A stretch of DNA of 64,000 nucleotides from Thermoanaerobaculia bacterium (GCA_036402955.1 DASWRX010000197.1:472-64471), one strand, 5' to 3'. Numbered from the stretch's first letter, positions 26,846 through 32,211 are shown. Notes: a model not told the origin generated them from the sequence alone. Made by a program: numbers and translations.

Positions 26846-26920
26846 GACCCGCGGGTCCACGATTCCGACCCGCGGGTCCGATTCTGCGACCCGCGGGTCA
26901 ACGACCGCGACCCGCGGGTA
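26846..26920. repeat. Left part of the 21-bp-period palindrome array (4 units)
   Basis: GACCCGCGGGTC at 26846, 26867 and 26888. The fourth unit, starting at 26909, is interrupted after 26917 by the transposon end. Confidence 0.95.
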
Positions 26921-26935
26921 CTGGCTCATTTTGAC
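26918..26935. repeat. Left terminal inverted repeat (IRL)
   Basis: Exact reverse complement of 31018-31035. It is 19 bp if 26917 and 31036 are included. Confidence 0.9.
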
Positions 26936-27098
26936 CTGACGTAAAACATTCTTTGAAATCAGGGGTTTACGTGTGGGCGGAACGGGCGTAGCGTCCTCCG
27001 GGAAGGGGAGGGATTGCCCCTCCCTTCGACACTACAAGCGGCCCGGCGGGAGTGCAGGAACACAACCGCCGGACCTGACCCGAGCAAGGAGCCAGTCC

Positions 27099-27407
27099 AT
27101 GCCCGAGCTGCCCGAAGTCTACCCCACCCCCCTCGACCTCACCCGCTACACCGAGAGCACCCGCCGCGACCTGTACGAGCGGCTGGTGCGCATCCAGTTC
27201 ACCCGGCAGGCCAGTGACCCGGAGGATGCCGCTCCCCTCCAGGACCCGGACGCCGCCGAGCTGACGGTCTTCTACCTCTTCGGCCGTTGGTTCGCCTACT
27301 GGCGGGAGCTGCCGGAGCCGGGCCTGCCCACGTGGCGCCTGACGGAGATGGTCCGCATCCAGGCCGCGCCGGATTCCCCGGACGGCATCATCCTCTACGA
27401 GATCTGA
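27099..27407 (+). CDS. Hypothetical protein (transposon passenger)
   Basis: AAGGAG 8 nt upstream of ATG 27099. 102 aa (MPELPEVYPTPLDL...). No motif recognised. Confidence 0.55.
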   Translation: MPELPEVYPTPLDLTRYTESTRRDLYERLVRIQFTRQASDPEDAAPLQDPDAAELTVFYLFGRWFAYWRELPEPGLPTWRLTEMVRIQAAPDSPDGIILYEI

Positions 27408-27410
27408 GCC

Positions 27411-27695
27411 ATGGCGTGGGACTCGAAACTCTCCTACCCTCCAGACGCCACGCGTAGCGTCTCGGTCAAGGCGACGCCTTCCCAGAAGGGCCGATGGGAG
27501 GACGCGGCACGCCGCCACGGCAAGGCGAGCGCGGGGGCGTTCCTGGCGTGGGCCGGGGACCTCTACCTCGCCCTGCTACACGCCTACCAGGACGCCGTCC
27601 AGGAGCATGACGACTCCCTGAATCCTGTCAGCTACGCGGAAGAGTTGAAGCGCCTGGAGGAGCGGGAGAAGGCCCGGAGGAAGGGCGAGAGTTGA
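27411..27695 (+). CDS. RHH-like small protein (passenger)
   Basis: VSVKATPSQKGRWEDAARRHGKASAGAFLAWAGDLYL fits strand-helix-helix. Paralogous to the N-terminus of the next ORF. 94 aa. Confidence 0.55.
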   Translation: MAWDSKLSYPPDATRSVSVKATPSQKGRWEDAARRHGKASAGAFLAWAGDLYLALLHAYQDAVQEHDDSLNPVSYAEELKRLEEREKARRKGES

Positions 27696-28138
27696 AGGTG
27701 GCGACGTTCACCGTCCACGCGACCGCCTTGCAGTCGGCGAGGTGGAAGCAGGCGGCGGAAGCTGAGGGACACCGCTCCGCCGGCACGTGGCTCGCGGCGG
27801 CGGCGGATGCCTATCTGAAGGTCCGCGCCCGGGCCGGGCAACCGATCGCCTTGGCGTGGCACCTGGGGGCGTTCACGGCTCGAATGATGGACGGTCGAGA
27901 GGTCCAGGTGCGGGGCATGGTGTCGCCTCCATTCGGGACCTACCGGGGCAATAGCCACGGGCCGGACGGGAACAAGCGGCGCACCCTCGTCCACCTTCCC
28001 ACCGGCCGCGTCATCGCCACACTCCGCAGTTCGCGCCAGTGTCGTGCTCTTGCGGCGGAGCTGGCACCGGTCCTCTTGCGCGGCGAGCTGCCGGAGCTTG
28101 GCCCGGTAGTAGACCGCCACGTCCGCGAGTCCTCGTAA
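27692..28138 (+). CDS. RHH-like N-domain protein with an unknown C-domain (passenger)
   Basis: FTVHATALQSARWKQAAEAEGHRSAGTWLAAAADAYL parallels the previous ORF. TTG start overlaps the upstream stop (TTGA); an alternative GTG start is at 27698. Confidence 0.5.
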   Translation: MKVATFTVHATALQSARWKQAAEAEGHRSAGTWLAAAADAYLKVRARAGQPIALAWHLGAFTARMMDGREVQVRGMVSPPFGTYRGNSHGPDGNKRRTLVHLPTGRVIATLRSSRQCRALAAELAPVLLRGELPELGPVVDRHVRESS

Positions 28139-28185
28139 AACCCTACGGGCGGCGCCTGTATGGGCCGCCCGTGTTACCATTGGGC

Positions 28186-28455
28186 ATGCCAAACCAGTCA
28201 CGCATGCCTAAGCGTCCCCGAGACTTCAACTCTCGCGCCTTTCAATCCGTCGCCATCCTGACCGGGGCCGAACCACTACCGCCCACAGAGCCCGTTGACC
28301 CTATACGCGCCGCGGCTGCCGCCCTGGGACGCCGCGGTGGGTTGAAGGGAGGGGCAGCCAGGGCCGCGAAGATGACTCCGGAGCAACGAAGTGAGAGCGC
28401 CCGGAAGGCGGCAGCCGCCCGGTGGAAACCGAAGGTTGACCACTCCGATGAATAG
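28186..28455 (+). CDS. Small basic protein (passenger)
   Basis: 89 aa. The C-terminal motif LGRRGGLKGGAARAAKMTPEQRSESARKAAAARW is a pattern I have seen in small phage- or TA-associated proteins. The start is uncertain (28186 or 28204). Confidence 0.45.
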   Translation: MPNQSRMPKRPRDFNSRAFQSVAILTGAEPLPPTEPVDPIRAAAAALGRRGGLKGGAARAAKMTPEQRSESARKAAAARWKPKVDHSDE

Positions 28456-28502
28456 TGCTACCGTATGCGGTGTCATTCGCAGGACTGGAGTGTCTCTGCG
28501 GC

Positions 28503-28790
28503 ATGGCTAAGAGTAGGAAGAGGCTACTGGAGGAGCTTCGCCAGAGGAAGCAGTCATGTGCACAAAGCATGGCAGACGCCGCGCTTGAAGCTTTCGGCTT
28601 TATTCGGGGCCGATCCCAGGGGCATGCGCAGGTATGGGCATACAAGCACATAACGATTACGGTTCATGCGCCGCATGGCGGCAAGGATATGGACCCGGGC
28701 GCCGTTGCTATGGTCATCCGTAAGATAGTAGAGGCCGACCTCTTCCAGCAGGCAGAAGCGAAGAAGGAGAAGCAAGAGGATGTCCACTAA
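28503..28790 (+). CDS. hicA: HicA-like toxin
   Basis: FGFIRGRSQGHAQVW...ITITVHAPHGGKDMDPGAVAMVIRKI resembles the HicA G-x-GSH / P-x-H-x-KD pattern. 11-bp overlap with hicB. The start is uncertain (28503 or 28569). Confidence 0.55.
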   Translation: MAKSRKRLLEELRQRKQSCAQSMADAALEAFGFIRGRSQGHAQVWAYKHITITVHAPHGGKDMDPGAVAMVIRKIVEADLFQQAEAKKEKQEDVH

Positions 28791-29349
28791 GAACCTCGCT
28801 TACTATTTGGGCTTGCGATACCCGTACGAAGTTCACGAACGCGAGGAAAGCTATTTCGTTACGCATCCCGACCTTGACGGATGCATGGCTGAAGGAACGA
28901 CCCTGACCGACGCCTTGTCAAATCTCGCTGACTCGCGGGAGCTTTGGATCGAAGCTAGGCTGAGTGGTGGCTATGATGTTCCTGAACCTTATTCGGAAGA
29001 ATATAGCGGACGTATTTCTCTTCGAATGACTCCCGAAGTTCATAGTCAGTTGGCTCGCATCGCCGAGCGGCGAGGAGTCAGCTTAAATCTGCTTTTAAAT
29101 TCGATACTTGCTTCTTACGCTGGCGGTGCAGAGCCCTTAGGCTCAGTGCTAAGCGAAATTAAATCGGCCCTAAGGGAGATGAGTACCGCGCCGATACCAG
29201 TTCTTCAAGCGGCGAGCGCTCGACAGACTGTTAGAACCGCGTTACTGCCAGATCACAATGATGCCTTGAGCGACGGCGCATTATTGATGCTCGGCGATTC
29301 CGCTACGCGGGCGCTGCTGAGAACGGGGAAAGGTCCTTTGAATGGATGA
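28780..29349 (+). CDS. hicB: HicB-family antitoxin (HicB N-domain + RHH C-domain)
   Basis: YPYEVHEREESYFVTHPDLDGCMAEGTTLTDALSNL (HicB fold) and SGRISLRMTPEVHSQLARIAERRGVSLNLLLNSILA (RHH). Confidence 0.85.
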   Translation: MSTKNLAYYLGLRYPYEVHEREESYFVTHPDLDGCMAEGTTLTDALSNLADSRELWIEARLSGGYDVPEPYSEEYSGRISLRMTPEVHSQLARIAERRGVSLNLLLNSILASYAGGAEPLGSVLSEIKSALREMSTAPIPVLQAASARQTVRTALLPDHNDALSDGALLMLGDSATRALLRTGKGPLNG

Positions 29350-30058
29350 AATACGAAGTTTGACCGTTCAACAGGTGCGGATTTACGCTCCAGGAATAGT
29401 GCCGCTTCTGGCGCTACGCTCTGCCCCTGGCATCGCAATTCTTCGCAAGAAGTTTGGGTTTCAGGAAATGGCGATAAACCCTACCGCCGGAGATGTGACA
29501 TTCGTTTCCGGCCTTGTCGTGCCAGAAAACGGCGATTTAGTCGCGATCAACTTTCTAGAAATTGGCGCGCAGAAGACGGCATGGGAGATTCTAGGGAGCA
29601 GCTCGACCGCGAACGCTCTTAATGATCTATTCGTAAAATTGATCACGGAATTGAGTCCGGAGATGGAGCATGCGGAGCCGCTCCTATTTACGCAGGTTAC
29701 GCAGTGCACAGTGCGCTTGGCGATCTCGTGGAAGGAACTTATCTCCGAAAAACTGGCGAGCGCGATAGAGGAGGTTCGCCATCGGTTTGATCTTCCTGTG
29801 GCCAGTACTAGAGTTGCGGGCATGAATCTGAATTTCACAATCCAGTATGACGTGAGCGATTTACGTATCAAGGAGTGGGGAATCGGCGTCCTTGACAAAA
29901 ATGTGACGCTTAACCCGGTTCCTTCCGTACCGTTCTCGGAACGGCTGTTCAACACCTCCTCCCCTCTTGATTCGGACGCGCATTTGCAGCTAGTCCAGGA
30001 TCTGGAGACGGCGCTCGCCGAAAATCAAGGGCGCCGCGCTACAGTTCGTCGCCGGTAG
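29342..30058 (+). CDS. Hypothetical protein, 8-bp overlap with hicB (passenger)
   Basis: 238-aa ORF in the AT-richest part of the window. ATG 29342 overlaps the hicB stop. No motif recognised. Confidence 0.6.
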   Translation: MDEIRSLTVQQVRIYAPGIVPLLALRSAPGIAILRKKFGFQEMAINPTAGDVTFVSGLVVPENGDLVAINFLEIGAQKTAWEILGSSSTANALNDLFVKLITELSPEMEHAEPLLFTQVTQCTVRLAISWKELISEKLASAIEEVRHRFDLPVASTRVAGMNLNFTIQYDVSDLRIKEWGIGVLDKNVTLNPVPSVPFSERLFNTSSPLDSDAHLQLVQDLETALAENQGRRATVRRR

Positions 30059-30127
30059 CCTTTCCCGTTCTGGCATAGCGAGGCCGACTCCCGTTTGTTC
30101 GTGGGCGGGTCGCAATCGGTTTGCCTC

Positions 30128-30156
30128 TTGACTTTTCCTGATCGGTCACGCATAAT
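30128..30156 (+). promoter_or_regulatory. Putative transposase promoter, possibly giving a leaderless mRNA
   Basis: TTGACT (30128-30133), a 17-nt spacer, then CATAAT (30151-30156). The ATG at 30164 lies 7 nt after the -10 element. Confidence 0.4.
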
Positions 30157-31027
30157 GTTCAGTATGACAAACGTCCTCAGCAACGCCGACCGAACCGCCG
30201 TCGTCGCCGCCCTGGTGGAAGGCAACTCGATCCGCGCCACGTCCCGGATGACGAGGGTGGCCCGGAACACGGTTACGAAGCTCCTCCTGGATCTCGCTGA
30301 GGTCTGCGCCGAGTACTCCAGCGCCAAGCTGGTCAACCTCCCTTGCAAGCGCCTCCAGGTCGATGAGATCTGGGAATTCTGCTACGCCAAAGCGAAGAAC
30401 GTCCCGGAGGACAAGAAGGGCGTTTTCGGCTATGGCGACGTCTGGACGTTCGTGGCGATCGACGCCGAGACGAAGCTGGTACCGTCGTGGCTCGTGGGCT
30501 CGCGAGACATCGGCAGCGCTACCGAGCTGATGCAGGATCTAGTCGGCCGTCTCTCGGGCCGCGTGCAGCTCACCACGGACGGGCTCAAGGCGTACGTCTC
30601 GGCGGTCGAGGATGCTTTTGGCGGGGACGTGGACTTCGCGCAGCTCCACAAGATCTACGCCGCCGCGCCGACCGGCCCGGAGACGCGCTACAGCCCGGCG
30701 GAATGCATCGGTTGCGAGAAGAAGCGGGTGGTGGGCGACCCCGACCCCAAGCACGTCTCAACGTCCTACGTCGAGCGCCAGAACCTGACGATGCGGATGT
30801 CCATGCGGCGCTTCACCCGGTTGACGAACGGCCATTCCAAGAAGGTCGAGAACCACGCCGCCGCCGTGGCCGTTCATTTCGCCTACTACAATTTTTGCAG
30901 GCCCCATTCCTCCCTGGGGAAGGGAGTGACGCCTGCAATGGCGGCCGGAGTCGAGTCCCGGAAGCTCGAAATCGTGGACTTGGTCGCCCTGCTTCCTGAT
31001 TCAGAAACTAAGGGCGAGTCAAAATGA
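30155..31027 (+). CDS. IS1-family DDE transposase (single ORF)
   Basis: N-terminal HTH (RATSRMTRVARNTVTKLL), LQVDEIWEF, WTFVAIDAETKL, LTTDGLKAY, YVERQNLTMRMSMRRFTRLTNGHSKKVENH, YNFCRPHSSL. Start is 30155 or, if leaderless, 30164. Confidence 0.85.
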   Translation: MFSMTNVLSNADRTAVVAALVEGNSIRATSRMTRVARNTVTKLLLDLAEVCAEYSSAKLVNLPCKRLQVDEIWEFCYAKAKNVPEDKKGVFGYGDVWTFVAIDAETKLVPSWLVGSRDIGSATELMQDLVGRLSGRVQLTTDGLKAYVSAVEDAFGGDVDFAQLHKIYAAAPTGPETRYSPAECIGCEKKRVVGDPDPKHVSTSYVERQNLTMRMSMRRFTRLTNGHSKKVENHAAAVAVHFAYYNFCRPHSSLGKGVTPAMAAGVESRKLEIVDLVALLPDSETKGESK

Positions 31028-31035
31028 GCCAGTAC
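31018..31035. repeat. Right terminal inverted repeat (IRR)
   Basis: Exact reverse complement of 26918-26935. Contains the transposase stop codon (31025-31027). Confidence 0.9.
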
Positions 31036-31036
31036 C

Positions 31037-31258
31037 GACCCGCGGGTCCACGACCGCGACCCACGGGTCCAGCTCTCCGACCCGCGGGTCAACAACCGCG
31101 ACCCACGGGTCCAGCTCTGCGACCCGCGGGTCAGCAACCGCGACCCACGGGTCCGGCTCTGCGACCCGCGGGTCAACGACTCCGACCCACGGGTCCAACT
31201 CTCGGACCCGCGGGTCAACAACTCCGACCCCTGGGTCCGGCGCTCCGACCCGCGGGTC
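31037..31258. repeat. Right part of the 21-bp-period palindrome array (11 units)
   Basis: 12-mers start at 31037, 31058, 31079, 31100, 31121, 31142, 31163, 31184, 31205, 31226 and 31247. GACCCGCGGGTC alternates with GACCCACGGGTC, giving a 42-bp super-repeat. One unit is the variant GACCCCTGGGTC. Confidence 0.95.
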
Positions 31259-31297
31259 GCTTCCGCAACCTTCCCTCCCCGCTTGCGTATCAGAGAT

Positions 31298-31315
31298 CAG
31301 AGTGATATCACTCTG
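31298..31315. promoter_or_regulatory. 18-bp perfect palindrome, candidate operator upstream of the SPFH gene
   Basis: CAGAGTGATATCACTCTG, ending 27 nt upstream of the ATG at 31342. Confidence 0.45.
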
Positions 31316-31341: not shown

Positions 31342-32211
31342 ATGATTCGCGAACGGGAGTACAACGGCAAGCCGGGGCTCGGCATGCTGCTGCTGTTCTT
31401 CGCGCTGTTCCTCGGCTCGGTCGGCGGCTTGATCTACTCCGCCAAAGAGGGACTCGGGATCGGGATCGTCCTCTGCGTGCTGCTGATGGTGGTCGCCATC
31501 CTCGGCGAGTGCGGGCTGTTCATCGTCAATCCCAACCAGGCCAAGGTGCTGCAGTTCTTCGGCGACTACGTGGGGACGGCCCGGCTGCCGGGCCTGCGCT
31601 GGGCCAACCCGTTCTACAGCAAGCGGGGGGTCTCGGCGCGGACCCGCAACTTCGAGACCGGCAAGCTCAAGGTCAACGACAAGGCGGGCAATCCGATCGA
31701 GATCGCGGCCGTGGTGGTGTGGCGGGTGATCGACACCGCCGAGGCGCTGTTCAACGTCGACGACTACATCAACTTCGTCCAGGTGCAGAGCGAGTCGGCG
31801 CTGCGGAACCTCGCCACTCACTTCCCGTACGTCGCCGACGTGGAGGGGGAGATGGACCTCTCCGGCCACACCTCGGAGATGTCGGTGGGGCTCGCCCGCG
31901 AGATCCAGGAGCGGCTGGAGCAGGCGGGGGTGGCGGTGCTGGAGGCCCGCATCAGCCATCTCGCCTACTCGCCCGAGATCGCGTCGGCGATGCTGCAGCG
32001 CCAGCAGGCCAGCGCGGTGGTGGCGGCGCGGGCGAAGATCGTCGAGGGCGCGGTGGGGATGGTCGAGCACGCCCTGGAGATGCTCGCGGCGAAGGGGCTC
32101 GTCGAGCTCGATCCCGAGCGCCGGGCGGCCATGGTGAGCAACCTGCTGGTGGTGCTCTGCGGTGGCGGCCATCCGCAGCCGGTGGTCAACGTCGGCAGCC
32201 TGTACCACTGA
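31342..32211 (+). CDS. SPFH/Band-7 domain membrane protein
   Basis: N-terminal TM helices followed by an SPFH core ([22 protein letters not shown]...[18 protein letters not shown]...[11 protein letters not shown]). Confidence 0.9.

Follow-up and report, generated by a model that had tools for sequence, protein, structure and literature searches.

This report concerns a mobile element of 4,120 bp that occupies positions 26917-31036 of a 64,000-nucleotide stretch of DNA (GCA_036402955.1, DASWRX010000197.1:472-64471; hereafter the window) from a metagenome-assembled genome (MAG) of a Thermoanaerobaculia bacterium (Acidobacteriota). The explanation that in our judgment very probably accounts for the whole is that this is an autonomous transposon of the IS1 family of insertion sequences (ISs), composed of conserved modules, carrying cargo that is swapped among elements, and possessed of distinct preferences as to target. 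From left to right, the element is laid out as a left inverted repeat (IR), a conserved leader of 180 nt, an operon of four genes (o1-o2-o3-o4), a cargo slot, a hairpin, the transposase promoter and gene, and the right IR. As its sequence shows, DDE transposition, by way of a staggered cut of 8 bp, placed it in unit 4 of a 14-unit palindrome array that lies upstream of a Band_7 gene. For the family at large, a probable picture of accessory genes, a cargo slot and two target preferences can be drawn from sequence comparison.

There are exactly two copies of the 19-bp sequence GGTACTGGCTCATTTTGAC in the window, the left IR on the forward strand (26917-26935) and its exact complement, the right IR, on the reverse strand (31018-31036), as against 0.01 chance copies expected from shuffles. 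Both termini read GGTACTG, matching the GGnnnTG with which IS1-family IRs begin by the ISfinder definition, and directly outside them stand two copies of an 8-bp target-site duplication (TSD), GACCCGCG, at 26909-26916 and 31037-31044; the IS1 family duplicates 8-9 bp. A preliminary description of the window had found these ends and the duplication, which stand, and had left a choice between an 18-bp IR beside the 10-mer CGACCCGCGG and a 19-bp IR beside the 8-mer. That choice is made by the element's relatives. From 80 related loci in species-representative genomes, both ends could be located for 42 elements; the IRs of these all begin GGTA[C/G]TG, keeping the start of the window's IR, and 36 of the 42 have an exact 8-bp TSD, so that the 19-bp IR with the 8-bp duplication is to be preferred. 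The flanking genes are unrelated between loci, and the relatives therefore represent independent insertions.

Copies of GACCCRCGGGTC in the window (at most one mismatch) all belong to one array, the units of which start at 26846, 26867, 26888 and 26909, the last being cut off by the element, and then at 31037 and each 21 bp on to 31247. The left part (26846-26916) consists of three whole 21-bp units, each made up of the 12-mer GACCCGCGGGTC and a 9-nt spacer, followed by the left TSD; the right part (31037-31258) has 11 units with a 42-bp super-period, GACCCGCGGGTC alternating with GACCCACGGGTC. Since 31037 minus 4,128 is 26909, removing the element and one TSD restores both the 12-mer and the 21-bp register exactly, and the single 14-unit palindrome array of 21-bp period that had been reconstructed as the empty site is thereby recovered. 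Between the end of this array and the Band_7 gene (ATG at 31342) lies the sequence TTGCGT-N17-TATCAC (31283-31311), below the threshold of our consensus scanner, such that the array would lie directly upstream of a possible host promoter.

It might be argued that the IR and the direct repeat are chance by-products of a palindromic array whose two halves are parted by ancestral DNA, an alternative that the preliminary description had itself raised and to which we give virtually no weight. The palindromic target does leave the boundary ambiguous by one base, as such an origin would have it, but the 19-bp IR is foreign to the array sequence and, by the shuffles, should not be present even once. 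The same IR, with the same gene order, moreover recurs at many loci unrelated to one another, every one with an 8-bp TSD of its own, and delimits elements in dozens of genomes that, like the flanks, are unrelated.

The transposase gene (30164-31027, forward strand, as are all the genes, promoters and other internal features described below) is a single open reading frame (ORF) of 287 aa, or of 290 aa with 30155 as its start, and its TGA stop codon (31025-31027) falls inside the right IR. Residues 202-240 match the Pfam family PF03400, DDE_Tnp_IS1, at 26.3 bits, above the gathering score of 24.1, and the best NCBIfam model is NF033558, transpos_IS1, at 53.2 bits, followed by IS6 at 26.9 and IS1595 at 22. 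The catalytic triad of D67, D139 and E204 is intact, and at least 97% of 146 homologues share it. The nearest homologues are labelled "IS1 family transposase" in their source records. The insA/insB' pair of classical IS1, joined by a -1 frameshift, is not found in this element, and a reading of the first 60 residues of the transposase gives no CxxC pair of an N-terminal zinc finger, only a weak helix-turn-helix (HTH) match. The earlier identification of an IS1-like, single-ORF DDE transposase with its stop in the IR is thus confirmed, and the element is a genuine IS1-family transposon, autonomous and of the gene-carrying, single-ORF kind.

All eight ORFs previously listed are present within the element, and the members of its group likewise carry extra genes between their ends. 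The preliminary description had supposed that this cargo-bearing form is secondary, a minimal IS of ~970 bp (30066-31036) having recruited a distal perfect IR at 26917 so as to mobilise 3.1 kb of foreign genes, with a degenerate IR copy at 30066-30084 (reported as an 11/19 match) as the original inner end. This history now seems to us scarcely credible. The weak IR-like site that speaks for it agrees with the IR in 10 of the 19 bases, one fewer than reported and no better than chance, and is equalled or bettered at 37 positions within the element; about five sites with 11 or more matches are expected per 4.1 kb. It also lies in DNA that is not conserved among relatives, conservation beginning only at ~30120, near the -35 element of the transposase promoter. 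The 42 bounded relatives span 2,155-4,997 bp, and none is of ~1 kb or has a left IR closer than 1,287 bp to the start of the transposase, so that no left end of the 30066 type is seen among them. Left end, leader and o4 are, on the contrary, conserved together with the transposase across phyla. Even the smallest elements retain an o4 homologue and one unrelated gene, which argues that the long, gene-carrying form is ancestral.

The surroundings of the relatives bear directly on the choice of target. All elements with a transposase ~66% or more identical to that of the window, those of loci L021 and L042 excepted, have the gene o3, which marks a clade. Empty-site reconstruction and TRF place palindrome arrays with a period of 20/21 bp (42 bp), in continuous register, on both flanks of the element at 21 of the 25 distinct sites of this o3 clade, as opposed to none of 16 fully bounded sites outside the clade. 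In a prospective test, each of three extra copies fetched by way of o3 homologues had arrays to its left and right, and a further copy (L174) sits in a weaker array of ~21-bp period. In all, at least 24 of ~29 o3-clade sites lie inside palindrome arrays of 20/21-bp period, against a background of comparable periodicity of ~0.5% (6 of 938 segments of the window and 10 of 1,817 segments of the locus flanks, several of the latter 10 adjoining a second element). The palindromes themselves differ by genome, and include GACCCGCGGGTC, GCCCCGTGGGGA, GGCCCAAGCGTGGGCC, ATCGGTCGTGACCGAT, GACCAnnnnnTGGTC, AACAATGTT and GGAATCGATTCC, among others, while different elements in one genome are found in the same type of array. 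It follows that the arrays are features of the host and that recognition is not of one sequence. The cut falls 0, 2 or 4 bp from the dyad axis, and in the four arrays of the GACCC/GCCCC type the TSD always comprises, once symmetry is taken into account, one and the same set of eight bases in the 12-mer. The transposon had been described as caught inside its array, as though by accident; an array is evidently the clade's habitual target. Judged by these sites, the clade inserts preferentially into palindrome arrays of 20/21-bp period, whatever their sequence.

Such arrays were seen in the window (26846-26916 and 31037-31258), at L002-L020, L046, L086, L087 and L178-L180, and at L016:12330-12740, where there is no transposon. 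Those in genomes of the Thermoanaerobaculia type are intergenic, have one palindrome of 10-18 bp per unit, and may be of several families in one genome. At L002:6891-6899, directly past the right TSD, is a sequence resembling the IR tip, GTACTGTCC, possibly a scar that a former insertion left behind.

Could the arrays belong to the element, or arise from it, for instance as excision footprints or as flanks mobilised along with it, and so not be pre-existing host targets? Within the 12-kb loci they are found almost only beside the element, and the IR tip, GGTA/TACC, resembles the half-site GGTC/GACC of the window's palindrome, both of which might be taken to suggest as much. We nonetheless consider an origin of this kind very unlikely. 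Three different elements of one genome are in one array family, near-identical IRs are found in unrelated arrays of other genomes, removal of an element with one TSD gives continuous register, and one array exists with no element at all. Chains of excision footprints, considered specifically, were rejected upon finding no IR-tip fragments in the arrays of other genomes.

Elements outside arrays display a second regularity. Reading outward from the IR tip, an exact TTGAC is found at offset 15 (that is, the TSD plus 7 nt) in 13 of 48 distinct right flanks of non-array elements, with at most one at any other offset; the variants TTGCAT and TTGAAT add further cases, some of them left-sided. Several of these TTGAC-type sites are followed after 17-18 nt by TAnnnT, as in TTGACA-N17-TATAAT (L035) and TTGCAT-N17-TACAAT (L052). 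An element of 2,634 bp on a plasmid of Acidiphilium multivorum, with the TSD AAGCCGAG, has TTGACG at offset 15, and the window insertion, too, follows the rule, its left side reading outward CGCGGGTC gcggtcg TTGACC. The IR carries a TTGAC of its own at nt 15-19 from the tip. At L065, L096, L076 and L109 the element abuts the IR of another copy, with one 8-bp TSD in common, as would be expected if a single target site had been used repeatedly.

Both regularities might instead reflect survival and not targeting, with near-random insertion being followed by the loss of all copies other than harmless ones in arrays or upstream of promoters. The arrays are indeed intergenic, an IS-free one is on hand at L016 (12330-12740), and purifying selection against gene disruption acts on all insertion sequences. 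We regard this account as unlikely, though less so than an origin of the arrays from the element. Selection cannot set the cut at a TSD plus 7 nt from TTGAC, as is seen at the one favored offset, nor does it explain the reuse of the same palindrome register in independent genomes or the tandem double insertions with one common TSD. Arrays, further, make up only ~0.5% of the surrounding DNA, and other, far commoner intergenic DNA goes unused by the clade.

Evidence of recent activity comes from the window locus itself. Three other assemblies contain this element at the very same site, with 99.3-99.95% identity. In two of these (L082:4824 and L083:30) the left junction is intact, and 67 bp of the array, corresponding to 31037-31103 of the window, is gone exactly from the tip of the right IR, the right TSD being lost with it. 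The new junction, gacc joined to cacgggtc, has the register of the independent insertions in L005, L006 and L012. As the deletion starts at the IR tip and reuses an insertion register, adjacent deletion mediated by the IS end is favored over slippage. Separately, a transposase (P0017) on 10 contigs was considered as evidence of as many sites, and proved to mark one locus sampled many times.

The left module of the element begins with its first 180-230 bp, the IR and leader, which show 71-87% DNA conservation across elements of the clade. From an alignment of leaders, TTGACC-N17-TGAAAT (26931-26959) is the probable inward promoter of the left operon, the -35-like TTGACC (26931-26936) being supplied by the inner end of the left IR and the -10, TGAAAT here, reading TAGAAT or TAAAAT in relatives; the consensus scanner did not detect this promoter. 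The non-coding leader proper (26936-27098) has GC-rich hairpins at 27001-27025 and 27041-27075, an RNAalifold energy of -6.2 kcal/mol with little covariation, and no match in Rfam at gathering score. The GC mosaic reported earlier holds, with values of 0.68 in the left 1.5 kb, 0.535 at 28.5-30.06 kb, and 0.63 in the transposase gene.

Four genes follow the leader. The first, o1 (27099-27407, 102 aa, no assigned function), occupies a variable position, which in relatives is filled by the o1 family or by an unrelated 140-aa family, both starting MPEL. The second, o2 (27411-27695, 94 aa), is a ribbon-helix-helix (RHH)-like paralogue of the N-terminus of o3 (47% identity over 38 aa, E = 2e-7), in keeping with the two RHH-like paralogues recognised before. 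Searching the loci with the window proteins by tblastn, o1 and o2 were found only sporadically among relatives. The clade-conserved accessory gene o3 (27692-28138, 148 aa) has 558 homologues, all unnamed. Its structural model (pLDDT 80.5) comprises an RHH-like beta-alpha-alpha N-terminus, in which an extended segment precedes helices at 12-24 and 30-47, then a beta-rich domain and, at the C-terminus, a pair of helices; searches of Pfam, NCBIfam, PADLOC and PDB sequences gave no hit, and the best Foldseek hit is at only E = 0.3. The idea that o3 reads the array sequence was tried and set aside: the o3 proteins of L006 and L017 are 98% alike at the N-terminus with unrelated arrays, and those of the window and L003 are 84-88% alike with different ones. 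As o3 does not track array sequence, we take it to be a regulator or co-factor, presumably DNA-binding, that would act on element DNA or on a host factor, and not a reader of palindromes.

The last gene of the module, o4 (28186-28455), encodes a basic three-helix protein of 89 aa with the motif GRxGGLKGGxARA...AAxARW, the core of which, GGLKGG...R...A..AA..R, is invariant. It has 3,102 homologues, one NCBI record among them saying "histone H1", and it adjoins the transposase in most elements, from Acidobacteriota, Chloroflexota, Nitrospirota, Planctomycetota, Actinomycetota and Pseudomonadota. Nothing in Pfam, NCBIfam, PADLOC or the PDB sequences matched it; its one hit is a PHROG family of unassigned function. 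An o4-like motif (GGxARA...AAxARW) also forms the N-terminus of P63C-domain proteins of 350-400 aa in distant relatives; in L014, L022, L031, L045 and L051 these lie in the cargo slot on the opposite strand, divergent from the transposase. To our knowledge, neither the family-wide o4 nor the clade-wide o3 has previously been described.

It follows that the seven genes once counted as passengers, while all present as ORFs, are not all cargo, for o4 belongs to the whole family, and o3 and the leader to the clade. The passengers are only hicA, hicB and o7, which comparison among elements identifies as true exchangeable cargo, in a fixed slot of variable content between o4 and the transposase promoter. 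The toxin gene hicA (28503-28790; PF07927, 30.8 bits against a gathering score of 27) overlaps by 11 nt (28780-28790) the antitoxin gene hicB (28780-29349; PF05534, 35.4 against 21; PF15919, 33.8 against 27; PF21748, also above gathering). With them travels o7 (29342-30058, 238 aa), which matches no family in the profile libraries searched. The same block is found in the same slot of L016, with protein identities of 60, 64 and 31%, and in both elements its GC is 0.535-0.536, as opposed to 0.66-0.68 for the backbone. Elsewhere the slot holds an OLD-like ATPase-Toprim protein, Fic/DOC, PIN, an HTH plus M78 peptidase protein, a trypsin-like peptidase, a ClpP-like SDH protease, GmrSD and P63C-domain proteins. 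The cargo is usually toxin-antitoxin or defence-like, with GC below that of the backbone. Two loci show further ISs in or near the element: at L178:8035-10063 the cargo region contains a nested IS4-family element (DDE_Tnp_1, 28-bp IRs), and at L180, where the cargo is a GmrSD type IV restriction gene, an IS110-family transposase gene lies just outside.

Between the cargo and the transposase is a terminator-like hairpin (30103-30126), followed by the transposase promoter, TTGACT-N17-CATAAT (30128-30156), which at 10 of 12 consensus matches is the best of the region. Because the ATG at 30164 stands ~7 nt past the -10, the transposase is probably translated from a leaderless mRNA; the in-frame upstream ATG at 30155 sits within the -10 itself. 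The modules on the two sides of the slot do not always share a history. In one MAG (L018 and L020) the o3 C-termini are 100% identical and the transposases 71%, and conversely L007 and L010 have transposases that are 92% identical and o3 proteins only 41-56% so. These discordant identities point to recombination of left and right modules between co-resident elements.

How such targets might be found can be sketched as follows. The transposase, or possibly o4, would dock on a TTGAC-like site or on the phased repeat of the target and thereby fix the position of the cut, in a manner that would mirror the use by the DNA-binding domain of the TTGAC at nt 15-19 of the element's own IR. Insertion upstream of promoters or in spacer-like arrays would keep the cost to the host low. 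A more far-reaching proposal is possible, which we advance tentatively and think somewhat less probable than its contrary: that these elements form an undescribed IS1-like branch with dedicated target selection, in which docking on a -35-like TTGAC, with insertion thereby placed 15 bp upstream of sigma-70 promoters, is the general mode, the clade that gained o3 has switched to genome-specific 21-bp arrays, and the elements serve as safe-site shuttles for toxin-antitoxin and defence cargo. Docking would then operate by mimicry of the IR's own TTGAC or by contact with promoter-bound RNA polymerase, and the arrays, which would constitute an undescribed repeat class in Thermoanaerobaculia, would be recognised by periodicity, structure or a bound host protein and not by sequence.

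Several observations weigh against the overall explanation favored here, that of an autonomous IS1-family transposon with swapped cargo and target preferences. The 53.2 bits of the transposase fall below the curated NCBIfam cut-off of 100 for the IS1 equivalog, making it a distant IS1 relative. Mobility in the window genome is inferred and not seen, as neither an empty site nor a second copy of the exact element is at hand: the reconstructed 28-mer empty junction has no exact match among metagenome contigs, the exact protein of the downstream gene is on 4 contigs that are all occupied by the element, the upstream gene is without any record, and the exact transposase recurs only at the same locus in the three assemblies. 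The 67-bp deletion could also be explained by a 3-nt ACC/ACC microhomology. Array targeting and o3 are confounded by phylogeny, both being marks of one clade, and array density was estimated from the window and the 12-kb loci only. Many arrays elsewhere have no TTGAC, so a single rule fails to cover both types of target. Lastly, -10 boxes follow TTGAC in 5 of 13 cases and in 5 of 30 controls, a difference that is not significant, for which reason the hexamer is called only "-35-like."

Target-specific DDE transposons are rare. They help to explain how mobile DNA spares the cell in which it lives, and offer a basis for building programmable or safe-site insertion tools. Recognition of arrays by period and dyad symmetry, not sequence, would, if true, be an unusual way to choose a target, and the 21-bp phased palindrome arrays are in themselves an unexplained genomic feature of the Thermoanaerobaculia lineage. 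Since relatives reside on plasmids of the cultured Acidiphilium multivorum and Mesorhizobium loti, these predictions are experimentally testable.

Among known systems, the closest in build is probably the single-ORF, ISMhu11-type branch of IS1. In common are an IS1-profile DDE transposase, GGnnnTG IRs, an 8-bp TSD, a single transposase ORF at the right end, extra genes upstream of it, and a length within 0.9-4.6 kb; the window element differs in the family-wide o4 and the clade-wide o3. From classical IS1 it differs in being without the frameshifted insA/insB pair and the N-terminal zinc finger. IS1 prefers AT-rich DNA, and we know of no strong target preference in that family for phased palindrome arrays or for N15-TTGAC. 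Transporter ISs (tIS), for example the ISNha5-type members of IS1595, are of IS size, bounded by IRs, and have genes unrelated to transposition inside. The window element similarly has hicA, hicB and o7 between its IRs, and its relatives have varied cargo between the same ends. Here, however, the transposase scores higher on the IS1 than on the IS1595 model (53 as opposed to 22 bits), and the cargo, mostly toxin-antitoxin or defence-like, is in a defined slot between two conserved modules. Like type II HicAB modules, the pair in the window has hicA upstream of, and overlapping, hicB, with Pfam families above gathering; it is distinguished in being transposon cargo, followed by a co-travelling protein of 238 aa that is also found in L016. 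An IS1-family transposon with passenger genes is thus already a catalogued kind. What is new is the pairing of a leader-o3/o4 module with a transposase module on either side of an exchangeable cargo slot, along with, as far as could be checked, two sharp target preferences unreported for the IS1 family.

In behaviour, the nearest counterparts are the ISs that target repetitive extragenic palindromic (REP) sequences or the bacterial interspersed mosaic elements (BIMEs), namely IS1397, ISKpn1, ISPsy8, ISPa11, ISPpu9/10 and ISRm22, which belong to the IS3, IS110, IS4, IS256 and IS5 families and use one REP sequence each per host (PMC1525189). Because these known examples are of other IS families (PMC1525189), the likeness is limited to behaviour. 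Shared are the habitual insertion on, or close to, the dyad axis of short palindromes outside genes, and a target that can be reconstructed; the o3 clade has its high proportion of array sites and its cuts at 0, 2 or 4 bp from the axis, and the alternating palindrome types of the present arrays recall BIMEs. The o3 clade, unlike the REP-targeting ISs, belongs to the IS1 family and uses array sequences that are unrelated to one another, having in common only the 20/21-bp period and the palindromic core.

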